The notes below the pieces were generated by a model. The model saw only the letters and a list, made by a program, of their open reading frames with translations. It was not told where the DNA came from and made no database searches. The translations under genes and the position numbers were made by a program. Positions 2,691-47,027 of a stretch of 64,000 nucleotides of DNA are shown here, one piece after another. Each line of letters begins with the position of its first letter. Position 1 is the first letter of the stretch. The stretch comes from a virus. Its lineage: Duplodnaviria; Caudoviricetes. The stretch spans positions 1 through 64,000 of the IMG/VR virus record IMGVR_UViG_2595698621_000001. The stretch is one strand, 5' to 3'.

Positions 2691-3052
2691 TAGTTTTCTA
2701 CCTCCGGGAACCCGACGCCGGTTGCTTCAGTCAACCAGTCAGACAGGTCGTCTCCGATGTTGTCTTCCCACTCAAACTGCTCAGTGTTGTCGTCGAACGT
2801 GCGGTCGGTGACGAGGTACGCCTTCACCTTCGTAGTGCTCTCGAGTGAGTCGCCCCACGAGTTGTGGAAGACGAGCGTGTCGTCGTACTGCGACGTGCTG
2901 ACCGCTACGTTGTCCTCATCCGCCTCGATGCCCTCGAACACCTCGGGCACGTCGTCGAGGATACTCTCCTCACCGAACCGCTCCTTGATGGCGGCGAGAA
3001 CGTCGACTTCCTCAGCAAACCAGCGCTTCAGGACGTAGTACGACTCAGTCAT
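2690..3052 (-). CDS. hypothetical protein
   Basis: Acidic ORF, translationally coupled. Confidence 0.7.
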   Translation of the reverse strand: MTESYYVLKRWFAEEVDVLAAIKERFGEESILDDVPEVFEGIEADEDNVAVSTSQYDDTLVFHNSWGDSLESTTKVKAYLVTDRTFDDNTEQFEWEDNIGDDLSDWLTEATGVGFPEVEN

Positions 3053-3153
3053 CGTATCCGCCCTCCTGCTCGTTGTAGACGATGTCTCTCGCGTCGTTGA
3101 GCGAGATGCTGTACTCCTTCGCCAGGGTCATCGCCGCGTCTTCGAGGTCGACT

Positions 3154-3450
3154 TCAGACATCGGCGTAGTCCCTCGCTTCCTCGATACGCTCGGAAATCT
3201 CTTCGTTCGTGCCGACCAGGCGGTCTATGTCGTTCAGAATCATCCGAACGTCTGACGCGGTCGGCGACCCGCGCACGTACTGACTGGGCAGGAGCGCGAG
3301 TGACTCGCGGGTGTTGTCGTCCTCTATCTCGTCCTCGATGGCCGCGTAGACGTAGTCGAGGGCGTACTCTTCTCTGCTGTCGCCTCCGACGACGCTCGGG
3401 TAGTCGTCGTCAGACGCGAGCTCGTCGAGAGCGTCGGTGTCGATTGGCAT
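3154..3450 (-). CDS. early hypothetical protein
   Basis: ATG directly after a repeated leader cassette. Confidence 0.75.
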   Translation of the reverse strand: MPIDTDALDELASDDDYPSVVGGDSREEYALDYVYAAIEDEIEDDNTRESLALLPSQYVRGSPTASDVRMILNDIDRLVGTNEEISERIEEARDYADV

Positions 3451-3520
3451 TTCTTTTGTCCTCCGCACCCGAACGTACACAGGGTAGTACCATAAAAGTC
3501 GGTAGCGGAGTGAAAGTAAA
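3448..3520 (-). promoter_or_regulatory. repeated early promoter/leader cassette copy
   Basis: ACTTTCAC 3510-3517, TTTTATGGTAC, GTGTAC, GGAGG, AAAAGAAATG. Confidence 0.85.
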
Positions 3521-3531
3521 AGACACGCCCT

Positions 3532-3717
3532 CTACTGCGTGTACTCGTCCCAGAACTGTTCCCAGAAATCGTCCTGCATACGAGGAAACCACCACGCAGC
3601 ATCGAGGTCCTCGAAGTGGTGCTCGCAGTTGTCACACTCGTAGACGATACCTTCGACGAACGTCCAGTGGTCGTCGTTGATGCCGCACGCTGGGCAGAAA
3701 CAGTAGGATTCTGTCAT
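3532..3717 (-). CDS. zinc-ribbon microprotein with W-x7-FW motif
   Basis: CPAC..CDNC plus WFPRMQDDFWEQFWDEY. Confidence 0.7.
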   Translation of the reverse strand: MTESYCFCPACGINDDHWTFVEGIVYECDNCEHHFEDLDAAWWFPRMQDDFWEQFWDEYTQ

Positions 3718-3968
3718 CCGAAGAGGTCGCCGAGGCCTTCGGTCGGTTCGACACCAACACGACGGCACGCGACCTCGTACATCGTTTCCACGTCGTTGAA
3801 CCTGTCCCCGTCGAGTGTGCTGCGCGTCTCCCCGTCGTCTGTACGTATGACGAGGTGGAACTTCGACTTGGTCGTATGCACCGCGGCGAGCTCGAACCCG
3901 TTAACGCGCAAGCTCTCGCGTTCTCCGGAAATCAGGTCGCGCAGGTCGCTCTTCACGAAGTCAGACAT
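3714..3968 (-). CDS. hypothetical protein
   Basis: ATGA-coupled ORF. Confidence 0.65.
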   Translation of the reverse strand: MSDFVKSDLRDLISGERESLRVNGFELAAVHTTKSKFHLVIRTDDGETRSTLDGDRFNDVETMYEVACRRVGVEPTEGLGDLFG

Positions 3969-4158
3969 AGGTCGATGGGTCCTCCACAGGCGCTTCGTCG
4001 TTGTTGAGCGCGCTCTCTGGCATCAGACCTCGCTCGCACACTGCGCACGTATCGACACCGCCCAGGTCGTCGGCGAGTCCGAACGGGAGCATCTTGACCG
4101 CTCCGCACTCGGGGCAATTGACAGGCGCACGTCCTCTCTCGTCGGTTTCGCCCAGCAT
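3961..4158 (-). CDS. CPxCG zinc-finger microprotein
   Basis: CPECG..CAVC. Confidence 0.6.
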   Translation of the reverse strand: MLGETDERGRAPVNCPECGAVKMLPFGLADDLGGVDTCAVCERGLMPESALNNDEAPVEDPSTYV

Positions 4159-4643
4159 CAGGCAGGCACCTCCTCGTCCCAGGAATCGTCTCGAATCTCG
4201 CACCACTTGTCCGCGGCTGCGTCCTCGAGAATCCGACGCAGCTCGCCGGGATTCTCCTTCATCTCGGTCATCGTCATCCCCGTCTTGACCTCGACGTGGA
4301 CGGTGTGCTCGCCACCGTAGCGGTCGTAGGTTTTGACCGCGCCTTTCGCACGCTTGTAGCGGATGCCGACACGACCGAGGTACCCTTTCGAGAACGGGTA
4401 CTGCCACTCAGTCGCGTGTTGATAATCGCCCGACAGCCCGGCGATGGGACCGCGGTCGTCGAACGTCTTGACGAGGACCGTGCCGATGTTCTTCCGACAC
4501 GCCTCGGCGTTCGTGGTACGCTCGACGAGACGTCCGGTGATTTTCTCGGCGATACGAATCTTCCGCATAGCACGCGAGTCGTCGAGCGGGACGAGGTACT
4601 GATAATCGCCCTGACCGCGCTCGGGTTTAGAATCGTCGTTCAT
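4158..4643 (-). CDS. early hypothetical protein
   Basis: ATG after repeated leader cassette (ACTTTCAC 4700-4707). Confidence 0.75.
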   Translation of the reverse strand: MNDDSKPERGQGDYQYLVPLDDSRAMRKIRIAEKITGRLVERTTNAEACRKNIGTVLVKTFDDRGPIAGLSGDYQHATEWQYPFSKGYLGRVGIRYKRAKGAVKTYDRYGGEHTVHVEVKTGMTMTEMKENPGELRRILEDAAADKWCEIRDDSWDEEVPA

Positions 4644-4731
4644 TTCTTTTCTCCTCACTTGCACGTACACGACCCGGCACCATATAATTCAGTGGCGGGG
4701 TGAAAGTAAAGAGAAGGCGTCTACTGCGTGT

Positions 4732-4884
4732 TTACGCCTCTGGAAGCTCTACTCCTGAATAAGTGACTTCGCACGCCGGACAGCGATGAGCAGGCACGTC
4801 AGCGTCGCCCATCACCAGTCCTGGTTTCGTCAGGTCTGTTTCTCGTTCTACCTCGTGTCCACATTCTGGACATATTTTCGCCAT
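4732..4884 (-). CDS. CPxCG zinc-finger microprotein
   Basis: CPECG..CPAC; preceded by cassette (ACTTTCAC 4942-4949). Confidence 0.65.
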   Translation of the reverse strand: MAKICPECGHEVERETDLTKPGLVMGDADVPAHRCPACEVTYSGVELPEA

Positions 4885-4903
4885 TTCTATCTTGCCTCGC
4901 TCG

Positions 4904-5083
4904 TCACTTCGCGTCCTCGTCTGATAAATTCTCGGAGCGGGGTGAAAGTAGTCGAGCGTCCCAGAATTCGTCGAGGTAGTAGTATCGCCAGCAAGCGTGT
5001 ACCGAGGAGTCACTCACCCGTCCATATCCCGGGTTATACACTCTGTCTGCCTCTGCGACGGGTTCTCCTATCAGCTCGTTCAT
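4904..5083 (-). CDS. W-x7-FW motif microprotein
   Basis: HACWRYYYLDEFWDARL; ATGA-coupled to upstream ORF. Confidence 0.55.
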   Translation of the reverse strand: MNELIGEPVAEADRVYNPGYGRVSDSSVHACWRYYYLDEFWDARLLSPRSENLSDEDAK

Positions 5084-5217
5084 CTCGACCACTTGTCCCA
5101 GAACTCGTCCTCGTGAAAGATACGCCAGGTGGAGCGTGTCGTTGGACCTGTGAGCGACCCTTCAGTCTTTACGTAGTTGTACGCGACCACCGCCGCGTCG
5201 TCCGGGCAGTCACTCAT
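5080..5217 (-). CDS. 45-aa W-x7-FW motif microprotein (not in ORF track)
   Basis: Manual translation MSDCPDDAAVVAYNYVKTEGSLTGPTTRSTWRIFHEDEFWDKWSR; overlaps neighbouring ORFs at both ends. Confidence 0.6.
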   Translation of the reverse strand: MSDCPDDAAVVAYNYVKTEGSLTGPTTRSTWRIFHEDEFWDKWSR

Positions 5218-5398
5218 CGAGGTACATCCTCCAGAATCGTTTGTACCGCGGCGTCTCGACCCACTCTACCATAGCGTGCGTATATCGGTGCTCGCAGTCA
5301 CGACACTCGATAACTCCCGTCTCTGGGAAGAACGTCGAGCTGCTACACCTCGCGCACCGATTGATGAGAACCGAGTCGGGACGTACCGGAAATTCCAT
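5210..5398 (-). CDS. zinc-ribbon microprotein with W-x8-FW motif
   Basis: CARC..CRDC plus HAMVEWVETPRYKRFWRMYL. Confidence 0.65.
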   Translation of the reverse strand: MEFPVRPDSVLINRCARCSSSTFFPETGVIECRDCEHRYTHAMVEWVETPRYKRFWRMYLDE

Positions 5399-5465
5399 AC
5401 GAGGATATGCGACACCCGAGCAGTTGTAACTTGTCAGCCAGAAACGACAGGAAAATTAGGAACCG

Positions 5466-5717
5466 TTACTCCTCGACGAGTAACCACTCGTGCAGGTCCT
5501 CGGGCGTTCCGAGATACTCTGCACCGAGGTCGTTCTTAGCGAGAGTGCGAACGGTTCCCGGGTACAGAGTGCGGGAATTGGTGCAGAGGACGAGCGTGTA
5601 CCCGCCTCCGAACTCTTCGGCATCCTCCTTCAAACGCAGGAGCAACTCCTCCTCGTGAAGGTGTCCGTACTCCTTCTGCACCTCAGCGACCGTGTCGCCG
5701 CGGAGGTAGTCAGTCAT
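5466..5717 (-). CDS. hypothetical protein
   Basis: Acidic coupled ORF. Confidence 0.6.
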   Translation of the reverse strand: MTDYLRGDTVAEVQKEYGHLHEEELLLRLKEDAEEFGGGYTLVLCTNSRTLYPGTVRTLAKNDLGAEYLGTPEDLHEWLLVEE

Positions 5718-5952
5718 CGCTCTCGACCTCCCACGAACAGTTGCCGCACTGGTCAGACTTCGTCAGCGAGTGAACCTGCTCGTATGCGGGCAGGTCTGGG
5801 TCGTAGGTGAACCCGGCGTCTCCGCTGACGTGATACTCGAGGCCGCACGCCGTCTCGATTATGAAGTCGTACAGAGGACGCGGAGATTCCTCGAAGTCGA
5901 CCACGCGGTGAGCGACGCCCGATTCATTACGCCAGAAACGAAGCTCACTCAT
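5710..5952 (-). CDS. hypothetical protein (H..TACG..CxxC)
   Basis: Coupled ORF with putative Zn ligands. Confidence 0.6.
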   Translation of the reverse strand: MSELRFWRNESGVAHRVVDFEESPRPLYDFIIETACGLEYHVSGDAGFTYDPDLPAYEQVHSLTKSDQCGNCSWEVESDD

Positions 5953-6408
5953 CGTCGCCCTCCAGACGGTTGCGGATACTCGAAAGCGATTCTGCCTGGT
6001 GGTTGCGCGTCCACGCGAGCATCTCCTCGTCGTCGAACCCGCAGTTCTGACAGCAACTCGCGTCGTTCAGGTAAATCCGACCGTTGACAACCTGGTGCGC
6101 AGGATTCTCGACGGTCGAACCGCAGTACTCGCACTCGCTCACGCTGACCACCCGTAACTGCACGAATTACAGTGCTGATGAGTCTTGCCGAGGTTCTCGC
6201 GTTCCTCGGTGTCGTTGCTTCCGCACCGCGGACAGGTCGTGTCGTCGTTCGTCATTTCTTTTCTGACCTCATCTGCACGTACACGGCCTGGTATCATAAA
6301 AGTGCGTACCACGGTGAAAGTGGACAGAAACACCGGCGTCTCTGGATGTCAAGATATACCTCCCGTGTCGCGTTAGCTGTAGACGAGCGGAGGGAGTATT
6401 AACATCAT

Positions 6409-6738
6409 ATGGAAGACGACCTTATAGACACACTAAGGTACGCTATGACCGTTAGAAGAAGTAAGAAGATGACGAATAGATACTACGGAAGGAGTCCAGT
6501 ACAGTCGTTGAAGACTGGTTCTGGTTCAACTATCTCGTTCGACCGTAGTACGCAGAAGAAACGACTACGAGGACTGAGTACGAGGTACAGTTGGACACCA
6601 GAGCCCGAGACATACGATAACCCGTGGGACGCTCCTATCTGGCGTAAGTGGATGGGTCGTGCCGAAGAGTTCTGGGACGCACGTTTACAGGCGAGTATCC
6701 TGTGGGAGTTTGAGAAGAACGATGAAGGTAGACGTTGA
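6409..6738 (+). CDS. W-x6-FW motif protein
   Basis: WRKWMGRAEEFWDARL; upstream TATTAA. Confidence 0.55.
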   Translation: MEDDLIDTLRYAMTVRRSKKMTNRYYGRSPVQSLKTGSGSTISFDRSTQKKRLRGLSTRYSWTPEPETYDNPWDAPIWRKWMGRAEEFWDARLQASILWEFEKNDEGRR

Positions 6739-6934
6739 GGGTATAGAAGTCGAGATAGAGGGTGTAGACCGTGGAGAACTACCCTCTGCGTTCGACTTCG
6801 GCGAGATGTGGGAGTTAGCGTCCCGGGGTGAATCCGTCGAGTCGATGGCGAGATACGTACACGCTCAGAGATGGGTCGAGTCGTCGAGGACTACGATGTT
6901 CTGGGACCTATGGGAACGCTCAGCAGAAAGATGA
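6722..6934 (+). CDS. W-x8-FW motif microprotein
   Basis: HAQRWVESSRTTMFWDLW. Confidence 0.6.
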   Translation: MKVDVEGIEVEIEGVDRGELPSAFDFGEMWELASRGESVESMARYVHAQRWVESSRTTMFWDLWERSAER

Positions 6935-7008
6935 AACCCGACTGGACACAGCGTCGCCGTCGCCTGTTTTGGGACGAGCGACTCGACGTTTCCCAGAGAC
7001 GTAAGTGA
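6931..7008 (+). CDS. 25-aa W-x7-FW motif peptide (not in ORF track)
   Basis: ATGA-coupled; MKPDWTQRRRRLFWDERLDVSQRRK. Confidence 0.5.
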   Translation: MKPDWTQRRRRLFWDERLDVSQRRK

Positions 7009-7115
7009 ATCTGGGTCGAGGCGTATAATAGGAGGACAAACGATGGTTGATTTGCTCGGGCTGTGTTGGGACGACTTCCTGTCGTTCCGCGACAGTCTAC
7101 ACGAGAACGACAAAG

Positions 7116-7421
7116 ATGAACGAGTACGAGAAAGCAGCGAAGGCAGTGGGCGAGGACACTCTGTTTCCGAGCCTGAATCCCAGCGACGACGTTAAGCACG
7201 CTATCTGGAGTCGTCGGCATCAAAATCGGTTTTGGAGCCGGTATCTCGAAACCTCTGGGAACGCTTGTCCTGCGTGCGGGTCGACTGACTACGAAGTCAA
7301 CGAGCGAGAATTGTATCAGGTAGGGCAGGAGAAGCCAGCGAGCGTGCGTGTCTGGTACTCGTGTAATGAGTGCGGTGTTAGATGGGAAAATGACTACACA
7401 GAACCCAACAAGAAAAAATGA
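7116..7421 (+). CDS. W-x7-FW motif plus TFS/RPB9-like zinc-ribbon protein
   Basis: HAIWSRRHQNRFWSRYL then CPACG..E.P..VWYSCNECGVRW, resembling a TFIIS/TFS C-terminal ribbon. Confidence 0.6.
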   Translation: MNEYEKAAKAVGEDTLFPSLNPSDDVKHAIWSRRHQNRFWSRYLETSGNACPACGSTDYEVNERELYQVGQEKPASVRVWYSCNECGVRWENDYTEPNKKK

Positions 7422-7810
7422 CTGACGAACCACAAGACGGCGTTATCGTTCATATATCGCCAACGAGAGCACAACACGGTGTAATTCACGCGGAACCCTG
7501 CGACTGCACCGATATTATACAGGTCGGTGGCGAGGAGGAGAGGGCGCTTAAATTCGTCGAGGACTTCGTGACGAGTCTCGCCGCGCAGCATAACTGCTAC
7601 TTTGTAGGTTGTAAGGACTGCGGGTGGGAAGGATTCTTCGGACCTGGTCCTCGTGCGACGAGCGAGGACAATAAGGCGGTGGTCGCCGAAGCAAGTTGTC
7701 CGGAGTGCTCCGGTGACATAATCGACCTACAGAACGATGACTGCGACCACGAAACCGAAGCGCTCGACTTTCACTACGACGAAAACGAACTACTGAACGA
7801 CGATGACTGA
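7418..7810 (+). CDS. zinc-finger protein
   Basis: CKDCGW..CPEC. Confidence 0.65.
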   Translation: MTDEPQDGVIVHISPTRAQHGVIHAEPCDCTDIIQVGGEEERALKFVEDFVTSLAAQHNCYFVGCKDCGWEGFFGPGPRATSEDNKAVVAEASCPECSGDIIDLQNDDCDHETEALDFHYDENELLNDDD

Positions 7811-10751
7811 AAATTCACAGAACCTAGCGAACCTTTCGCCCGAAGATGTGGTACTGCCCGCGAAACGATACGATTCTCCGACTCTCGAGGAGCGGATGAG
7901 CGAGAATGCCTACAACAACATTCTCCCCGCTCGCTATCAGATGAAGGATGAGACAGGAGAAATCGTCGAAGAACAAGAGGACGTTTTCGAGAGGGTGGCG
8001 GAGAACATCGCTCTCGGCGACGTGCCTCATATGCCCGGGATTATCGAGGTAGGTCCCAGCGAGTTCCGACCTGAGTTCCTCGATGAGTTCCCCGACGGCG
8101 AGACGCAGGTCGAGGTCACTGAGGACAACGTGAAGTATCTCGACTACGAAAGCGTCTCCGAGGTTCTCGCACCTGAAGCGCGACGTGACCTCGAGTCCAC
8201 GAAGGACGAATTCCAGGACTTGATGGAGCGACTCGCGTTCATCCCGAACACTCCGACTCTCATCAACGCTGGCGACGAGCTTCAGCAGCTCTCCGCGTGT
8301 TTCGTCAATTCTCCCGAAGACGATATGGAGTCGATTCACGACACCGCGAAGGAAGCGGCGCTCACGTTCCAGTCAGGAGGTGGGATGGGATACGCCTTCT
8401 CTCGACTGCGTCCCTACGGTGACGCTGTGGGTTCGACGGGCGGCATCGCTTCGGGTCCTATCACGTTTATGCGTACCTACGACCAGATGTGTAAGACCAT
8501 CGCTCAGGGTGGTACGCGGCGTGGTGCGCAGATGGGTGTTATGTCGGTAGACCACCCAGACATCATCCAATTTATCCACGCCAAGAACAAGGACGTGAGC
8601 CTCGCGCTTTCGCTGGGTCTCAACGACCCGAAGGACCCGACAAACACCTCCTTCACTGAGGCGCTCGACGAAGCGCGTGGCCTCATCGAGGACGGGAAGG
8701 TTCCGAACTTCCTTCGGAATGCCATCGAGCAGCATCTCTCGAACTTCAACATCTCGGTCGGTGTCACGCACCGGTTTATGGAGGCGCTCGAGGCGGGTGA
8801 GGACTACACGTTCATCAACCCGCGCACCGACGAGCCTCACGTCGCCAGTCAAGAGACGAAGGAACTCTGGTCTCGCTACGACCTCGGACACCACGTCAGC
8901 GTCGGAGAACCGCTGTCTGTCCCCGCGGAGGATGTGTGGGACCATATCGTCGAAGGCGCGTATGAAAACGGAGAGCCCGGTGTTATCTTCCTGGACGAAG
9001 TCAACGACGAGCACTCCTTCGACGTGGACGAGCATCCGGAGCACGAGATTATCGCCACGAACCCCTGCGGCGAGCAACCTCTCGAGGAGTACGAGGCCTG
9101 CAACCTCGCTCATATCAACCTCTCGACCGTCGTTACCGAAGGTGCGCCTGACTGGCGCGAGGTTCGTCCGGAGTATCTCGAAGGCACAGAGGACGAGTGG
9201 ATGGACGAAGAACTCGAGCGTCACGTTCGAGAATTCCTGGACGACGCTATCGACTGGGAAGCGTTCGACCGTCGTATCTACTCGGGCACTCACTTCCTCG
9301 ACAACGTGGTGACGATGAGCGACTTCCCGATTCCAGAAATCGAGGAGACGGTGTCGTCGCTCAGGAAAGTCGGGCTCGGGATTATGGGCTACGCGCAGAT
9401 GCTCGTTCAAATCGGTGTGCCATACGGCACGCCTGCGGGGAACGAAGTGGCGCGTCAGCTTATGCAGTACATCAATCACGAGAGCAAGGCAGAATCTCAT
9501 CATCTCGCTGATGACCGAGGTGCGTTCGACGAGTACGAGAAGTCGAAGTACGCGAACCCGACTCAGTATCCTGAGTGGTTCGAGTCTCACGTCGGTCTCG
9601 ACCCGAGTGACTGGGAAGACGGATTCGAGGTTCGGAATCACAACACGACGACCATCGCTCCTACGGGCACCACGTCGATGCTCGGAAACACGTCGGGCGG
9701 GTGTGAGCCCATCTACTCTGTGGCGAACCTCAAGAACGTGTCTCAGGACATCCAGGGCGAGGACGAGCTCGTTCAATTCGACGACTACTTCCTGCGCGTT
9801 CTCGAGGCGAACGGAGTCAACGTGGAGAAGACGAAGAAGGAGGCATACGAGCTTCTGATGAGCGAGGACGGGTTCGACGGTGCTCACCAACTCAGCACTG
9901 TGCCCGACGCCATCGCCGACCTCTTCGTGACGACGAGCGACCTCTCTGGACGCGAGCACGCGAGTGTTCAGTGCGCGTTCCAGGAAGGAGTCGACTCGGC
10001 CATCTCGAAGACGGTCAACTTCCCATCGACCGCGTCACGCGAGGACGTGCGTGAGGTGTACGAGTACATCCACGCGAACGGCGGGAAGGGCGTGACCGTG
10101 TATGTTGACGGAACCCGGTCGAAACAGGTTCTCTCTACGTCGTCGAACAAGGCCGATACAGAGGACACGGATGACGAGGAACCCGAGAGCGCGTCATCTG
10201 ACGACGCTCAGACGCCTCGGCCTCGCCCGCGACCCGACGTTCTCGACTCGACGGTGTACCCGGTCAACACGGGATATGGCGAGCTTAACGTCTTCGTCAA
10301 CGAGGACAACGCCGGCGACCCGTTCGAGGTGTTCGCAGAAATCGGGAAGTCGGGTGGGTTCACTCACTCGTTCACCGAGGCAGTCGGACGTCTCGTGTCT
10401 CTCGCACTGCGTAGCGGTATCCCGCCCGAAGAAGTCATCGACCAGCTCGATGGCATCCGCTCACCGAAGACGGGCTGGAACACGGGCGGTCAGCAGATTC
10501 AGTCGATTCCGGACGCTGTCGCGCACGCACTGAAGCAACACGACGAAGGAGGGGACGATTCTCTCGACTCTGACCCGGGGGTTGAGGCGGGTGAAACCGC
10601 ACTCCCTAACGGTGGGCAGCAGGAGACAGCGGGTAGCACGACTGCACTCGAGAATGGCGAGTCGCCTGAGTGTCAGGACTGCGGGTCGATGTCTCTCAAC
10701 TACTCCGAAGGCTGTAAGACGTGCGAAGCGTGCGGCTGGAGCGAGTGCTAA
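7803..10751 (+). CDS. nrdJ: class II (B12-dependent) ribonucleotide reductase with TSCPD-like domain and C-terminal Zn ribbon
   Basis: PNTPTLINAG, LSACF, GGGMG, RRGAQM, TNPCGEQ, TIAPTGT, SAISKTVN; C-terminal CxxC..EGCKTCEACGWSEC. Confidence 0.95.
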   Translation: MTENSQNLANLSPEDVVLPAKRYDSPTLEERMSENAYNNILPARYQMKDETGEIVEEQEDVFERVAENIALGDVPHMPGIIEVGPSEFRPEFLDEFPDGETQVEVTEDNVKYLDYESVSEVLAPEARRDLESTKDEFQDLMERLAFIPNTPTLINAGDELQQLSACFVNSPEDDMESIHDTAKEAALTFQSGGGMGYAFSRLRPYGDAVGSTGGIASGPITFMRTYDQMCKTIAQGGTRRGAQMGVMSVDHPDIIQFIHAKNKDVSLALSLGLNDPKDPTNTSFTEALDEARGLIEDGKVPNFLRNAIEQHLSNFNISVGVTHRFMEALEAGEDYTFINPRTDEPHVASQETKELWSRYDLGHHVSVGEPLSVPAEDVWDHIVEGAYENGEPGVIFLDEVNDEHSFDVDEHPEHEIIATNPCGEQPLEEYEACNLAHINLSTVVTEGAPDWREVRPEYLEGTEDEWMDEELERHVREFLDDAIDWEAFDRRIYSGTHFLDNVVTMSDFPIPEIEETVSSLRKVGLGIMGYAQMLVQIGVPYGTPAGNEVARQLMQYINHESKAESHHLADDRGAFDEYEKSKYANPTQYPEWFESHVGLDPSDWEDGFEVRNHNTTTIAPTGTTSMLGNTSGGCEPIYSVANLKNVSQDIQGEDELVQFDDYFLRVLEANGVNVEKTKKEAYELLMSEDGFDGAHQLSTVPDAIADLFVTTSDLSGREHASVQCAFQEGVDSAISKTVNFPSTASREDVREVYEYIHANGGKGVTVYVDGTRSKQVLSTSSNKADTEDTDDEEPESASSDDAQTPRPRPRPDVLDSTVYPVNTGYGELNVFVNEDNAGDPFEVFAEIGKSGGFTHSFTEAVGRLVSLALRSGIPPEEVIDQLDGIRSPKTGWNTGGQQIQSIPDAVAHALKQHDEGGDDSLDSDPGVEAGETALPNGGQQETAGSTTALENGESPECQDCGSMSLNYSEGCKTCEACGWSEC

Positions 10752-10798
10752 TCTGACGTAGCCCGAATCTTTTTGCTGACCGGTTGTTGTTTCGTGAT

Positions 10799-11338
10799 AT
10801 GGACCCGCAACTCGAAAGTGCAGTGTCCCGGTTCATCGGGAAAGAGGACGGCGACCTTCCCGACGCCGCGGCTGATAACGACGACGTAGAGGATACTCCT
10901 CGAGACATCGAGCACGAACAGATTTACTATCTCCTCGCTGACGCCTATCCGGACAAGTTCGAGGACGCGGAGCACGCGAGAGAGCTGATACACGACGCGC
11001 TCGGAATCGAGAGCGAAGAGAAGGACGAAGACCCGTGCTGGGACGGGTATGAGCAGCAGGGGATGAAAGAAGGCGACGACGGCGAGCCTGTCCCCAACTG
11101 CGTCCCGAAGGACGATGGTGACGAGAAGGGAATCGACCAAGAGGACGCGAACGAGGAAGACGACGACTTCAACCCTGGCAACACGCCCGACAATCTCGAC
11201 CAGCATCCTCACGACGAGGCTGAGTGGCAGGAGGACTACAACCGAGACCTGCAAGATAAGACCTGTGACCACACAGACCACCGAGGACGCGCACTCGATG
11301 AGGAGGAGTGTCCGTGGTGCGGTGGTGATGAAGGATGA
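10799..11338 (+). CDS. acidic protein with PCWDGY..GMK..VPNCVP motif
   Basis: Motif seen in many tailed-phage proteins; C-terminal CPWCG. Confidence 0.7.
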   Translation: MDPQLESAVSRFIGKEDGDLPDAAADNDDVEDTPRDIEHEQIYYLLADAYPDKFEDAEHARELIHDALGIESEEKDEDPCWDGYEQQGMKEGDDGEPVPNCVPKDDGDEKGIDQEDANEEDDDFNPGNTPDNLDQHPHDEAEWQEDYNRDLQDKTCDHTDHRGRALDEEECPWCGGDEG

Positions 11339-32257: not shown

Positions 32258-32332
32258 CTTTTCTTCCTCTGCGTTCCTGTATTCACGACCCGGTACAATA
32301 AATCCTCGTAGCGGAGTGAAAGTGGTACTTGG

Positions 32333-33697: not shown

Positions 33698-34357
33698 CTA
33701 GCTACGAACCCACTTCGGGTGGTTCTGCGCCGGTGCGTCCTGCAACACGTCCCAGTCGTTCGTTCGGCAGTTACCGCACGGTCCGATTCTGCCCGTCGCC
33801 TGCGCGTCCTTGACCTTCTTCGACTTCTTCTGACGCCACAGGACGAGCCCGCAGTCATTACAGACGATGAACCACCGCGGGTCAGGTTCGTCGTAGCGAC
33901 CGATATTGGTCACGTCGAGACGCTTCGCCTCGCTGATGAACGTGGGTCCGTGTCCCATATAGCCGTTCTCGACGAAGTTCGAGGCGTGGACGAGCTCGTG
34001 CTTGACCGTGTTACGCAGGCGTTCCCAGTCGTAGTTCCGTTTCTTGTACGCTTCCCACGACAGGACAATCTCCACGTCGTAAGGCGCCTTCTCGTCGCAG
34101 CGACCGAGCAGACGAGACATACGCCCGCTGTCGCGGAAATCAATCATATCCCGCGTGAGAACGTCGAAGCGATACTCCTCGAGGACCCACTCCATATACG
34201 ATTCCGCGTACTGCATAAAGCGGTCGCGGGTCTGCGGGTCCTTTTCCCACTCCTGACCTCCAATCTGTTCTTCCTTCGACTCGTTCGCGTCAACGCCGTC
34301 CATAACGACGGGTTTCTTAGCGAAGGGGTCAGCTCCTGAGCAGCATCGGTGACACAT
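33698..34357 (-). CDS. SprT-like zinc metalloprotease with Zn ribbon
   Basis: RM...LG, TVKHELVH, GHGPTF, CNDCG..CGNC; preceded by cassette (34418-34425). Confidence 0.85.
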   Translation of the reverse strand: MCHRCCSGADPFAKKPVVMDGVDANESKEEQIGGQEWEKDPQTRDRFMQYAESYMEWVLEEYRFDVLTRDMIDFRDSGRMSRLLGRCDEKAPYDVEIVLSWEAYKKRNYDWERLRNTVKHELVHASNFVENGYMGHGPTFISEAKRLDVTNIGRYDEPDPRWFIVCNDCGLVLWRQKKSKKVKDAQATGRIGPCGNCRTNDWDVLQDAPAQNHPKWVRS

Positions 34358-34616
34358 TCTATTTTGACCTCTGCGGGCGATAGTACGAACCGCGGGGTCA
34401 TCAAACCTAGTAGCGGAGTGAAAGTAAATAATTCATAACGCCGTAAGCACAGAATAACACCTGTAGACCGGTATTAATCGGAGCCTTACGCCTGCTAGGA
34501 GGATAATTACAATACAAACCCCTACCATATCTGTATGTGCGACGTGACGTAGCAGGCACACCGAGGAAAACACAAGTGCCCGTTTGACAGCAAGTAGGCC
34601 GAACAGAGGAAAAAAT

Positions 34617-42734: not shown

Positions 42735-43832
42735 TCAGGCGAAGACGCCCCAAACGTCGTCGTCTTCGTCGTCCGCGTTCTCAGCGGCGCTCTGTCCTTC
42801 GACGGGGGAAGCGTCGGTGTTCGCGCTCGACTCGTTCTCGTCGTCGCTCTCGTCGTTCTCTGCCTCGTTACTGTCGTCGGCGTCGCCTTCGTCGGGAACG
42901 TTCATCTCGGCGTCGTCGAAGTCAGCGGACGACGGGCCCGCGGTGACCTTGACGACCTGACCCATATACGGGTAGTGACCGTTCGAGTACATCGAGGCCT
43001 TACCCTCGTCGTTCTCCTTGACGCGCTTCGTCTTACCGCCCTCGTCCTCGAAGACGACGCCCCACGTCTCGCCGGTACTCATATCGTACCCAGACGAGCG
43101 CGAGGTGTGGACGCGCTTGAAGTACGTGACCTCACCCGAGTAGGTGTTCAGGCCGTTGCCGTTCTTCTTCGCGTAGGTGACCTCGATACGGTCGCCATCC
43201 TGAACGAAGTCGAGCAGGTCCTCGAGCATCGGGTCGGCCTCACTCGACTCGTCGCCGCGTGCGTCAACCCAATCGTAACCTTCGCTCTCAGCGAGCTCGC
43301 GCAGGTCGTCCAGGTACTCGGCATCGAGCGACCAGGCGTCCTCTGCCTCAGGAGGAGCAGCGCGGTTGTCGTCGTCGAAGGTGTAGTGCGAACCTTCGCG
43401 GTCGTCGTCGTCGGCGCACTCGTCGTCGCCCCACGGGAGCGACTTGATGACTTCGTTCGCGGGCGTCATATCGTCGGGCGTCTCCCACGGCGGAGGCGAC
43501 TCGACGGTAACGCGCTTGTCGTCGTAGGTGTTCTCCCACTCGGCGACGACACGGAACGCGAGCTCGTCCTCGTCGTCGGAAACGTTCCAGACGAACGTGC
43601 GGGCACTCGTGCGAGGCTTCGCGCCGTCAACCTCGTCCTCGTCGGGCTCAGCGACGACCGTCTTCAGCAACTCGTGCGACGGGTGCAGGACGGACGTGAG
43701 AACCTCCTCCAGGTCGCTCAGGTCGTCGTCGCTCTGCGGAACCAGAACGTCGATTTGCTCCTCGACCTCGTGGTTCATCAGCGTGCGGTTGCGTGCCGTT
43801 TCAAGCGCGGCGTCGAACTTGGAATCGCTCAT
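42735..43832 (-). CDS. early acidic hypothetical protein
   Basis: Strong codon bias; GAGGAGAACAGAAATG start. Confidence 0.8.
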   Translation of the reverse strand: MSDSKFDAALETARNRTLMNHEVEEQIDVLVPQSDDDLSDLEEVLTSVLHPSHELLKTVVAEPDEDEVDGAKPRTSARTFVWNVSDDEDELAFRVVAEWENTYDDKRVTVESPPPWETPDDMTPANEVIKSLPWGDDECADDDDREGSHYTFDDDNRAAPPEAEDAWSLDAEYLDDLRELAESEGYDWVDARGDESSEADPMLEDLLDFVQDGDRIEVTYAKKNGNGLNTYSGEVTYFKRVHTSRSSGYDMSTGETWGVVFEDEGGKTKRVKENDEGKASMYSNGHYPYMGQVVKVTAGPSSADFDDAEMNVPDEGDADDSNEAENDESDDENESSANTDASPVEGQSAAENADDEDDDVWGVFA

Positions 43833-43928
43833 TTCTGTTCTCCTCACTTCGTAGTACAACGGGTCATACCATAAATGTATGGACTTATCACTTACTGAAG
43901 CTACGTGCTATAGCGTCTCTAGCTACGT

Positions 43929-44177: not shown

Positions 44178-44218
44178 AGAATAAAGAAAAAGCCCGCGGG
44201 TTCGCTACCCGTCGGGCT
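44178..44218 (-). terminator. hairpin plus U-tract terminator
   Basis: AGCCCG-A-CGGGT..ACCCG-CGGGCT followed by TTTTCTTT immediately after the stop of 44218-44463. Confidence 0.65.
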
Positions 44219-44463
44219 TAGAGTTCGCGCCTTTCGCCGTTCATCTCATCCCAGAAGTGCTCGTAGTCGTTCGGGCCGTCAGGCCTCATCCTCATCGCCC
44301 CGATAACGTTGCCGCAGTCGGGACAGTCGTAACCGAGGTCTCTCCGACCAGCGGGCATACTCGGAAGTCCCTTGATGGTGACGCCGTCCATATCGTAGGC
44401 CGACCCGACCCACCCACAGTCGCCACACTCGTACTCGTGCGACTCGTGGCGGGTCTCACTCAT
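44218..44463 (-). CDS. zinc-finger microprotein
   Basis: CGDCGW..CPDCG; ends ..EHFWDEM. Confidence 0.7.
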   Translation of the reverse strand: MSETRHESHEYECGDCGWVGSAYDMDGVTIKGLPSMPAGRRDLGYDCPDCGNVIGAMRMRPDGPNDYEHFWDEMNGERREL

Positions 44464-45106: not shown

Positions 45107-46369
45107 TCAGAAATCGAGGACTGACTGCGATTTGGCACCGAACTCTTCGACACTAGAGTCCTTGCCGCCCGACCACTCTTCGTACTCCTTTTCGTCGAGA
45201 TTGAGGATATCTAACTCAGCACCCTCAAGACGATGTTCCAACGCTATCTCTCGACGTTCTTCCTCATCGAGGTCCTGAAGGATGGGCAGGAGAACCTTCC
45301 TGAAGTAGACGAACGAACCCGAGAACTCATATCGAGTCCCGTCTGTGTTCTTCAGCTTCCTGTAGACGCGAGAGACGGGTTTGTCTGACGATGCTTTAGC
45401 GACCGAGTGCCTGAACCACTCCGGGAAGAGGTCGGGGATGTAACCACTGTGCGCGTCAGTGAGACGGACCTCGGGCACCATACGAGCGAGCGAACCCGCG
45501 TACTTCCAATACCTGTAGTTGCGCGTGTCTCTCGTGCGACCCAACCACTTGTCGGCGCGTGAGAGACAGTCGTAGGCGACACCCGCCTCGAGACCTCGAT
45601 ACTCCTTCGCCACTGCCTGGTCGAGCCACATAACGAGGTCCTCTGGGTCGAGGTTCATCCCCGCGTACTTGTTCCCAGAGAGCATCTCAGGAATAGCGTC
45701 GAAAGCGTCCTCGTCCCACTGCCTTCCATCGTCGCCAAGCGGGACGTCTTGCTCGACGAGAATCTGGAGGTCGTTGATAGCGGAACGGAGGTCAGGACGT
45801 GCCGCGAGTTTTTGAAGGTCTCGGTCATCGACTTCGACACCTTCCGACTCAATAATGTCCTTCAGTTTCGCCTTCCTCGAACGCTTCCCGAGTTTGAAGT
45901 CGTGCTGATTGACTCGGTTCGTCACGCCATCTGGCGTTTGGTAGGCGTCGTTCGCCGTGAGGATTATCGGGTTCGGCGGGTCGTCGAGAACGTCATACAT
46001 CGGTTCCTTGCTCGGCGCACCTCTGCCCGTTGGCCATCCGTCAACCTCGTCGATGAGGACGAGTTGATGGTCGGCGTCTGCGGGAGTTGACTGCGCGTCT
46101 GCGGCGATATTCACCACGTCCTCCGTCTTCCTCGCTGTCGAGGCGTTTATCTCGGTCATCGGCATCTCGAGCGTGTCAGAGATGACCTGAGCGGTCGTCG
46201 TCTTACCGACACCCGGAGGGCCGACGAGCAACTGTGCTTCGTCGCCGGGTTCCCAATTCTCTGCCCACGACTTCAGTTGTCGCAGAGATTTGTTGTTGCC
46301 CTGGATGCTGTCGAAACTCGTCGGTCGATACTTCTCTACCCAAGATTCGTTGTTGTCGTTGTCTGTCAT
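45107..46369 (-). CDS. rfcL: replication factor C large subunit
   Basis: WVEKYRP, GPPGVGKTT, EINAS..R, LIDEVD, PIILTAN, DLRSAINDLQ; C-terminal PIP-like QSVLDF. Confidence 0.9.
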   Translation of the reverse strand: MTDNDNNESWVEKYRPTSFDSIQGNNKSLRQLKSWAENWEPGDEAQLLVGPPGVGKTTTAQVISDTLEMPMTEINASTARKTEDVVNIAADAQSTPADADHQLVLIDEVDGWPTGRGAPSKEPMYDVLDDPPNPIILTANDAYQTPDGVTNRVNQHDFKLGKRSRKAKLKDIIESEGVEVDDRDLQKLAARPDLRSAINDLQILVEQDVPLGDDGRQWDEDAFDAIPEMLSGNKYAGMNLDPEDLVMWLDQAVAKEYRGLEAGVAYDCLSRADKWLGRTRDTRNYRYWKYAGSLARMVPEVRLTDAHSGYIPDLFPEWFRHSVAKASSDKPVSRVYRKLKNTDGTRYEFSGSFVYFRKVLLPILQDLDEEERREIALEHRLEGAELDILNLDEKEYEEWSGGKDSSVEEFGAKSQSVLDF

Positions 46370-46527
46370 AGGAACACCTCGATTAGTTTGAACCCCACGT
46401 AGATGCCGACGATACCCATAACGCCAGCGAGGTTCGGCGGTGCAGGCACGGGTAGGTCCACGTATGCGAAAAGCGCACCGACGAACATACCCGTGACGAG
46501 CGAGAGAAGGACGATTTTGTAGCTCAT
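46366..46527 (-). CDS. XapX/DUF1427-like membrane microprotein
   Basis: LLSLVTGMFVG.LF....LPVPAPP.LAGVMGIVGIY.G. Confidence 0.75.
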   Translation of the reverse strand: MSYKIVLLSLVTGMFVGALFAYVDLPVPAPPNLAGVMGIVGIYVGFKLIEVFL

Positions 46528-46529
46528 CG

Positions 46530-47027
46530 TTAGAAGTCGAGCGGGTCCTCCACCTGGAATTGAGGTTCGAGCTCGCGCTCGTACACGACCATCCGATTCC
46601 CGCGACTCGTGTAGTAATAATCGACAGCGCTGAACCCGTTGTCCATCCAAAACTCCTCGAGGTCGGCGGTCGATAGTACATCTGCGACCATCACTTCCTT
46701 TCCTCGCTCTTCTGCGTAGTCGACTGCCTCCTCGAGCATCTCCGACCCGTACCCGTTATGTCGTTCCTTTGCAGACACAGCGATGTTACGGAGACACGCT
46801 TCTTCGGGCGCCAGGATGTCTGACTCGACCCACACCATACACGCGCCAGAAACTCGGTCTCCGCGCAGGAAATACAAGAGACGCCTGTCCTTGCGACGAA
46901 CGCACCGGTCAACGTTTTCACGCCGAACGAACCAGTACAGGTCCTGCGGAATCGTCACGTCGTCGAAGAAGTCGTCTATCTCGTCGAGACGCTCATCTTC
47001 AGGTTCTGCGACCTTGATTTCTACCAC
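46530..47027 (-). CDS. GNAT-family acetyltransferase
   Basis: LRNIAV..ER.NGYGS.ML acetyl-CoA motif, FW..NGF. Confidence 0.85.
   Translation of the reverse strand: MVEIKVAEPEDERLDEIDDFFDDVTIPQDLYWFVRRENVDRCVRRKDRRLLYFLRGDRVSGACMVWVESDILAPEEACLRNIAVSAKERHNGYGSEMLEEAVDYAEERGKEVMVADVLSTADLEEFWMDNGFSAVDYYYTSRGNRMVVYERELEPQFQVEDPLDF

Follow-up and report, generated by a model that had tools for sequence, protein, structure and literature searches.

A virus-specific family of terminal microproteins that share a short aromatic helix in a haloarchaeal tailed virus

Do the very short genes crowded near one end of a haloarchaeal virus genome, whose products have little in common except a small aromatic motif, form a single protein family, and what could the shared element be for? 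The question is raised by positions 3532-7421 of the virus record IMGVR_UViG_2595698621_000001, of which we analyzed the first 64,000 bases (hereafter the window; bases 1-64000 of a 103,257-bp genome, one contig). Bases 1-213 are found again at 102519-102731, consistent with a direct terminal repeat. Haloarcula virus HCTV-16 (Druskaviridae, Hacavirus) matches the region 3000-11000 at 96.7% identity across 92% of that region, parts of which are about 81% identical to HCTV-5 and HVTV-1/2; the source of the window was treated as a Hacavirus of the HCTV-1/HCTV-16 group (Druskaviridae, haloarchaeal siphoviruses with a linear genome). We report that the short genes belong to an undescribed, virus-specific family of paralogues, present in multiple members per genome, kept in the relatives, absent from unrelated viruses and under purifying selection.

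The initial annotation had listed eight peptides with a W-x(6-8)-F-W motif, and all of them were found at the coordinates and on the strands given there (Table 1), in coupled mini-operons on both strands with gene overlaps of 4-17 nt; the string EFWDARL recurs on opposite strands, in 4904-5083(-) and 6409-6738(+), as had been noted. A six-frame count of W-x(6-9)-FW gave 9 sites in the whole window, all 9 of them within 3532-7421, against 1.04 +/- 1.06 (maximum 5) for the window and 0.06 +/- 0.23 (maximum 1) for the region in 200 dinucleotide-preserving shuffles. The ninth site, at 5914-5964, spans a start codon and was excluded from the members as a chance match. Seven of the eight open reading frames (ORFs) correspond to annotated coding sequences of HCTV-16, namely gp12, gp18, gp19, gp20, gp24, gp25 and gp26. 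The eighth, the 25-aa ORF 6931-7008, has no annotation in HCTV-16, yet its frame is open and conserved there (1 synonymous and 2 non-synonymous differences) and also scores with the family profile; the annotated gp18 of HVTV-1, in the same relative position, bears the motif. An in-frame ATG at 6871 would extend this product to 45 aa.

The estimate of at least eight copies, real as these are, proved to be an undercount, the whole genome holding 23. When the 8-copy profile was run on all six-frame ORFs of the genome, weaker copies were detected on the + strand at 94.6 kb and at 100-102.3 kb, so that the 103-kb genome carries eight members in the window, one at 94650-94811 and 14 at 100005-102250. 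The family, with members of 25-109 aa, accounts for approximately one gene in seven and is confined to the two terminal regions. The right-end array (100005-102250) is composed of 14 consecutive head-to-tail micro-genes of 40-84 aa, all with the motif-bearing helix described below, and every one of the 13 junctions overlaps, by 4-17 nt; its HCTV-16 equivalent is a run of 16 consecutive 'hypothetical proteins', gp152-gp167, and HCTV-16 also has members that are absent from the present genome. The right-end members and 94650-94811 nearly all finish with ...[RE][FY]W[DSTR]x[WRY]..., and in one member of the array IFF replaces FW. The solitary member 94650-94811, with conserved counterparts in HCTV-16, in HCTV-5 and on several metagenome contigs, lies directly upstream of an RNase H1 gene (HCTV-16 annotation) with a 4-nt overlap. 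All 23 segments align gap-free when set on FW. A profile of the 23 was searched back against 3150 six-frame genome ORFs, a search that is circular for those 23, and returned them plus one weak extra match (33871-33933, E 0.095), which leaves the middle 85 kb empty of members. The partial copy that had been suggested at 44218-44463 fell away, with 2.6 bits (E 26) against the first profile and no recovery at E<=0.1 by the 23-member profile.

Conservation in relatives was evident. The 23-segment profile gave 26, 18 and 10 matches at E<=0.1 in HCTV-16, HVTV-1 and HCTV-5, respectively, and a wider profile gave 24, 14 and 12 at E<=0.01, all 50 of the latter lying below 7.1 kb or above 93.4 kb; member 6409-6738 has orthologues in both HVTV-1 and HCTV-5. 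In five unrelated haloarchaeal tailed viruses (four Hafunaviridae, two of which infect Haloarcula, and one Haloferuviridae), the profile found 0, 0, 0, 0 and 1 weak match, and in the Haloarcula marismortui replicons pNG700 and pNG600 (565,854 bp) one weak match, interrupted by a stop codon. A tblastn search with the 124-aa form of member 7116-7421 against 50,697 phage records hit 6 records, all HCTV-16, HVTV-1/2 or HCTV-5, and the 109-aa member, scanned against IMG/VR, matched 2 loci, none beyond the virus group. The word-indexed search of 5.8 billion proteins yielded 29 candidates with 15 matches at E<=10, all of them virus kin or short metagenome contigs. HMMER against 1.84 billion protein representatives gave 9 matches at E<=1e-3, seven of them kin and two long T/V-rich proteins, which showed no match to an FW-type motif and were treated as compositional artefacts. 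A genome-contig scan with the alignment of a 53-aa member returned one spurious bacterial match, to Kushneria, and the ESM Atlas search with the 109-aa member retrieved only unnamed viral clusters.

The libraries of described families bear out the view of a protein-level motif common to otherwise dissimilar microproteins, and the statement that no described family covers it holds as well, for no library family spans the shared segment. Pfam gave no match over the motif in the eight window members (E<=1) or in the 15 others (E<=0.01), NCBIfam none in any of the 23, and the motif profile matched no PDB sequence at E<=10. In PHROGs, 4904-5083, 5080-5217, 6409-6738 and 7047-7421 (the long form of 7116-7421, matching phrog_19679) fell into four separate families at E 3e-17 to 1e-61. 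These four orthogroups, phrog_34015, phrog_28572, phrog_27877 and phrog_19679, are all labeled 'unknown function' and each hosts one window member; no library connects them, and none models the shared helix. For the other four window members no PHROG was found at E<=0.01 except weak Zn-ribbon matches. The supplements of PMC8651126 apart, which could hold a remark on it, the literature consulted (including PMC8651126, PMC3950731 and PMC4284463) makes no mention of such a family.

For description of the motif, a total of 71 F-anchored segments was compared: 23 belong to this genome, and the three relatives contribute 48 distinct ones. The segments are non-independent, many being orthologues. The consensus is W-x3-R-x-E-[RE]-F-W-D-x-[RYW]-L-[DE], numbered from W(-8) and R(-4) through F(0) to [RYW](+4), after which L-[DE][DE] follows. 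W at +1 is present in 70 of the 71 segments, F at 0 in 64 (Y in 6), and R, Y or W at +4 in 68 (36, 17 and 15, respectively). Conservation then falls through D at +2 (52/71), R, E or Q at -1 (49/71) and R at -4 (41/71, plus H in 11/71) to W at -8 and E at -2 (30/71 each) and L at +5 (27/71); W is displaced to -7 in 8 segments and to -9 in 10, and positions +6 and +7 are acidic. The segment is a predicted amphipathic helix of about 20 residues. In our reading of the counts, the i/i+4 spacing would give the helix three faces: an aromatic/arginine ladder made up of W(-8), R(-4), F(0) and R/Y/W(+4); next to it, W(+1) with L(+5); and lastly E(-2) with D(+2) and D(+6).

Selection on the family is purifying and acts at the protein level. 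Comparison of the 23 ORFs with HCTV-16 gave 104 synonymous and 69 non-synonymous differences, that is, a proportion of synonymous differences (pS) of 0.129 against a proportion of non-synonymous differences (pN) of 0.022, with pN/pS of 0.17; the alignment of members 100802 and 101437 covers only 18/50 and 8/84 codons, so these two have no clear HCTV-16 orthologue. Member 5080-5217 shows 3 synonymous and 0 non-synonymous differences, and in five orthologues of the 101-aa member the best-conserved columns include those of the motif stretch and of the Cys ligands. Chance occurrence or non-coding ORFs are ruled out by the shuffles and by pN/pS. A different origin of the pattern would be a nucleotide-level signal, TTCTGGGA placed 15-25 nt upstream of the next start and acting in termination-reinitiation or as recombination microhomology, with the amino-acid pattern as its by-product. 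In most members the motif does keep much the same distance from the stop/start overlap, and TGGGA occurs within 15 of the 23 copies, UGGGA being the sequence of the calicivirus termination upstream ribosomal binding site that acts in termination-reinitiation. However, F and W are invariant while the next codon differs (GAC, GAT, AGG, AGC, AGT, ACG); R(-4) in the 23 copies uses all six Arg codons (CGT 4, CGA 4, CGC 2, CGG 1, AGG 1, AGA 1); the pattern includes W(-8); in three members the motif is remote from any gene junction; and the copies share just 25-51% DNA identity over 51 nt. Codon choice within the motif (F, TTC 19/TTT 2; D, GAC 13/GAT 2) agrees with that of the family as a whole (51/10 and 91/29). 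Since the codon diversity, the variable codon past W and the inclusion of W(-8) are left unaccounted for, a reinitiation or recombination signal fails to explain the motif, and we consider it extremely improbable.

Outside the motif the members differ widely, and the helix is combined with several kinds of module. A C4 Zn ribbon comes before it in 3532-3717 and 5210-5398 and after it in 7116-7421. The helix follows CxxC...Hx3-4H (C2H2-like) fingers in the right-end members 100615, 100948 and 101681 and short non-Zn segments in the 40-53-aa members, and stands nearly alone in 6931-7008. By BLASTP, similarity between members is mostly limited to 10-25 motif residues, apart from cases such as 5210-5398, which resembles 3532-3717 over 39 aa (E 5.6e-6). 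The metagenome orthologues retain the W...FWD core, with varying flanks and termini: P0012, an orthologue of 6722-6934, keeps W...FWD.W, and P0009, an orthologue of 4904-5083, keeps the motif and stops 5 aa past FW, without the 18-aa tail. Clustering of the profile hits from the terminal loci of four Druskaviridae (23, 25, 17 and 11 hits per genome) gave 32 orthogroups, 8 of them in all four viruses, 5 in three and the rest in one or two; these sharing counts are lower bounds because the loci are incomplete and weak members fall below threshold. The initial annotation had proposed a modular docking helix fused to variable partners, of which the modularity and, by AlphaFold2 prediction, the helix stand, the docking being a matter of interpretation. 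The early expression assumed there and the targets it named (RNAP, a defence sensor or the viral AAA/VWA (CobS/CobT) proteins) are conjecture.

The structure predictions bear on this interpretation. For the 45-aa member, AlphaFold2 with a 28-row alignment of paralogues and metagenome orthologues gave helix 6-19, a turn and helix 24-44, the latter containing the whole motif, at a mean predicted local distance difference test score (pLDDT) of 70.3 and with values of 82 and 81 for the last two 10-residue blocks, which form the motif helix. For the 101-aa member (5 rows), the motif helix was placed at 24-43 with pLDDT <50 and the Zn ribbon at about 75 (mean 56), and the ESM Atlas model of 6409-6738 was poor (pLDDT 0.45). 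Comparison of the 45-aa model with 48,161 chains (VIA-align) returned generic helical hairpins with a best Z of 4.0 and was uninformative.

We favor, tentatively and with rather less than even confidence, the reading that the motif is a protein-protein interaction helix shared by variable modules in a terminal family of host-takeover genes. An interaction surface is preferred because even very divergent paralogues conserve the exposed polar positions, because the helix occurs on either side of the modules and nearly alone, and because it is not confidently packed in the larger, 101-aa member. The helix would dock on one common host or viral partner, or join the family members to one another, and each member would owe its own specificity to its variable part, be it a C4 Zn ribbon, a CxxC/HxxxH finger or a short helix. 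Taken together, the members may thus serve as a kit for host takeover or regulation. Such a kit would be expressed from the closely coupled operons of the genome ends, of which one continues straight into the gene for ribonucleotide reductase. Several points weigh against this reading. The 45-aa model packs the motif helix on the N-terminal helix, and W/F/W/L could be a mere folding core; the conserved polar residues could be engaged within the helix, in salt bridges or cation-pi pairs, and not in an interface; and the AlphaFold2 models are of modest confidence (mean pLDDT 70 and 56) and derived from shallow paralogue alignments. In addition, the host side was represented in the searches by no more than two Haloarcula megaplasmids and by the global protein libraries, and in libraries so large a profile of 26-46 columns has little power, distant members being possible.

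The first of these points leads to the main alternative, one that we judge possible, if on the unlikely side, in which the members are tandem duplicates of a helical-hairpin ancestor of about 45 aa, W...FW..L being needed for folding and the functions being unrelated, with no common partner. In favor of this view, the 45-aa member is modelled as a hairpin in which helix 6-19 packs against the motif helix, and the 14-gene head-to-tail array of the right end is typical of tandem duplication; weak pairwise similarities sometimes reach 35-70 aa, and in several members another W or aromatic residue stands 15-22 residues upstream. On the other hand, a structural core is difficult to reconcile with the helix standing on both sides of Zn ribbons, with a 25-aa ORF that cannot form a hairpin, with the conservation of the charged D(+2) and R(-4) across very divergent paralogues, and with the 101-aa member, the helix of which is not confidently packed on the ribbon.

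The position of the helix brings in another explanation. The motif usually ends up 5-10 residues from the C-terminus: in 17 of the 23 members it lies near that end (<=10 residues past FW), and in three it is internal, with 18, 20 and 61 residues following. C-terminal amphipathic helices, such as the tails of MinD and FtsA, can target proteins to the membrane, and the Trp-rich, amphipathic character of the motif would suit a similar role in carrying the microproteins to the cell membrane. We nevertheless hold this to be very unlikely, as acidic residues are conserved in and past the helix, the three internal copies are followed by long segments (18-61 residues), and no member has a predicted transmembrane partner.

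Its charge pattern invites yet another, namely that the basic aromatic N-terminal half, with an R-rich run and the W-R-F-R ladder, contacts RNA or single-stranded DNA through stacking and through its arginines, the members being small regulators of transcripts or replication intermediates. Arginine-rich motifs of the lambda N type consist of a run of about five or more Arg in a helix of 10-20 residues, and Trp of lambda N stacks on boxB. R, H and Q are abundant at positions -7 to -1, and one member has RRRR; Zn ribbons and C2H2-like fingers, often nucleic-acid binders, are present in many members; and members share operons with the ribonucleotide reductase gene and, by HCTV-16 annotation, with RNase H1. 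The family as a whole lacks an arginine-rich motif, a true Arg run being found in just 1 of the 23 members (the RRRR of 6931-7008) and only R(-4) being common to the family; moreover, the acidic stripe that the helix conserves (E-2, D+2, D/E+6,+7) and its acidic tails argue against such contacts. Nucleic-acid binding is thus improbable in our view, more so than a folding core but less so than membrane targeting.

As to which protein an interaction helix might bind, the virus group carries its own PCNA, RFC (small subunit included), PolB, primase and RadA, a nearly complete replisome, and the motif resembles the PCNA-interacting peptide (PIP) box, Q-x-x-[LIM]-x-x-[FY]-[FYW], in having an adjacent aromatic pair near the C-terminus (F/Y in 70/71 and W in 70/71 segments). 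It differs at the other positions: among the 71 segments the Q1 equivalent (-6) is S in 11, D in 10, R in 8 and T in 7, and the aliphatic equivalent (-3) is E in 16, Q in 13, R in 6 and D in 6. A helix without the PIP Q and aliphatic positions does not favor PCNA docking. The virus does encode an RFC large-subunit-like protein at 45107-46681(-), so annotated in HCTV-16, with an EKYRP box and a C-terminal SQSVLDF, which is a canonical-type PIP box unlike the shared helix.

Likenesses of the Zn ribbons to known proteins were also considered. Three window members are below 110 aa and have CPxC-type Zn ribbons, as do the haloarchaeal C(P)XCG zinc-finger microproteins, such as HVO_0758 and HVO_2753 of Haloferax (Pfam PF23137); those proteins are without the shared helix, and PF23137 matched no member, its sole match (E 0.028, below the cut-off) being to the non-member ORF 4732-5013. 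The ribbon of 7116-7421 matched TIGR03655 (Lar restriction alleviation) at 22.4 bits (E 1.1e-4, ribbon only), short of the cut-off of 39.6 bits, and Pfam Lar_restr_allev at E 0.02. In the Foldseek search against PDB the rows for TFIIS, Rpb9 and A12.2 came first for this ribbon (model mean pLDDT 56), at E 0.025-0.35 with none at E<=0.001; the alignment with 1tfi had a template modelling (TM) score of 0.60 over 42 columns, likewise sub-threshold. The description 'TFS-like ribbon' accordingly agrees with the head of the list, not with significance, the best E being 0.025. Pfam Zn_ribbon_RPB9 matched 3532-3768 at E 0.28. The likeness to Lar and to TFIIS/Rpb9/TFS ribbons is limited to one variable module and does not extend to the shared helix. 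Four more CxxC Zn-finger micro-ORFs without the helix are located in the same block, 4732-4887(-), 5710-5952(-), 5945-6163(-) and 6139-6333(-), for which Pfam gave sub-threshold Zn-ribbon matches only; 5710-5952(-) starts with MSELRFWRNE, its FW being N-terminal instead.

The genomic arrangement itself has parallels. Dense, small, overlapping genes beside direct terminal repeats are also found in large virulent siphoviruses and myoviruses, in the SPO1 terminal module and among the T5 first-step-transfer genes; no single signature motif is known to run through the members of those host-takeover or pre-early clusters. Poxvirus ankyrin/PRANC proteins have a C-terminal F-box-like helical motif in common, are otherwise variable and lineage-specific, and are located at genome ends. 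With these and other terminal multigene families, the present family shares the expansion at linear genome ends, the short shared helix and the rapid turnover; it differs in having no sequence or fold relation, in protein size (25-109 aa versus several hundred) and in its hosts, no cullin/Skp1 system being known in haloarchaea. By analogy with the F-box/PRANC principle, the helix (W-R-F/W-D-R-L) might be a universal docking tag by which some 20 interchangeable adaptors plug their recognition modules into one hub, with the proteasome/PAN, Cdc48 machinery, RNA polymerase or the replisome as candidate hubs and the 25-aa helix-only peptide as a possible competitive regulator. We regard this as doubtful. 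If true, archaeal viruses would have their first described host-takeover adaptor system defined by a motif.

To our knowledge, almost nothing is known of host takeover by tailed archaeal viruses. Terminal gene arrays of haloviruses are annotated wholesale as 'hypothetical protein', and approximately 23 such anonymous ORFs now become one testable object: a 20-residue helix peptide can be used as bait, with point mutants of W, F, D and R as controls. A single partner of the interaction helix, if there is one, would probably be a central weak point of haloarchaeal cells; without one, the family would provide a compact natural example of microprotein folding and diversification at 4 M salt. In either case, ORFs down to 25 aa can be conserved in these genomes and merit annotation.

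Table 1. Members of the family in the window, the rejected candidate and the exact copies of the promoter-like element
Feature	Position	Strand	Description
Member, 61 aa	3532-3717	-	N-terminal C4 Zn ribbon (CPAC...CDNC), then C-terminal helix AAWWFPRMQDDFWEQFWDEYTQ; HCTV-16 gp12; profile E 5e-4
Member, 59 aa	4904-5083	-	HACWRYYYLDEFWDARL plus 18-aa tail; HCTV-16 gp18; phrog_34015
Minimal member, 45 aa	5080-5217	-	STWRIFHEDEFWDKWSR; phrog_28572
Member, 62 aa	5210-5398	-	C4 Zn ribbon (CARC...CRDC), then C-terminal HAMVEWVETPRYKRFWRMYLDE; HCTV-16 gp20
Member, 109 aa, first in rightward operon	6409-6738	+	IWRKWMGRAEEFWDARL, 20 aa past FW; phrog_27877
Member, 70 aa	6722-6934	+	HAQRWVESSRTTMFWDLWERSAER; HCTV-16 gp25
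ORF, 25 aa, nearly all helix	6931-7008	+	MKPDWTQRRRRLFWDERLDVSQRRK; ATGA overlap with preceding gene
Member, 101 aa (124 aa from TTG 7047)	7116-7421	+	Helix HAIWSRRHQNRFWSRYL N-terminal to C4 Zn ribbon
Zn-ribbon ORF, 81 aa, non-member	44218-44463	-	EHFWDEM, no upstream W; profiles fail to recover it
Promoter-like element, exact	3505-3517, 4695-4707, 4937-4949, 32311-32323, 34413-34425	-	ACTTTCACYCCGC

The members are embedded in closely packed transcription blocks. On the + strand, the four members between 6409 and 7421 lead an operon that continues through overlapping stop and start codons into 7418-7810 (4-nt overlap with 7116-7421) and then into the gene for class II ribonucleotide reductase, 7803-10751, which 7418-7810 overlaps in turn. 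On the opposite strand, 3532-3717 overlaps its upstream gene 3714-3968 by 4 nt.

A promoter-like element, ACTTTCACYCCGC, was found 13 times in the window with <=2 mismatches (5 exact copies and 8 with 1-2 mismatches) against 3.22 expected, and none of 100 shuffles reached 13. Where the sequence was read, the element is followed about 10 nt on by a TTTATGG/TATATGG box and a leader ending GAGGAG...ATG. Its copies at 3505-3517, 4695-4707 and 4937-4949 split the leftward block into several putative transcription units. The element lies upstream of operon-first genes and probably marks one temporal class of viral promoters. A sigma-70 promoter scan gave 0 sites, its consensus being irrelevant to archaea. 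The 18-aa tail of 4904-5083 is encoded by 4904-4960(-), which includes the promoter-like element of the next gene (4937-4949); given this and the tail-less P0009, coding sequence and regulatory element overlap here. For three ORFs, 3154-3480(-), 4158-4670(-) and 42735-43859(-), the ORF finders prepend a prefix resembling MYVRVRRTKEM, which is the translated conserved leader of ACTTTCACYCCGC; the true starts are the ATG codons after ...AAAGAA, and the products begin with MPIDTD, MNDDSK and MSDSKF, respectively.

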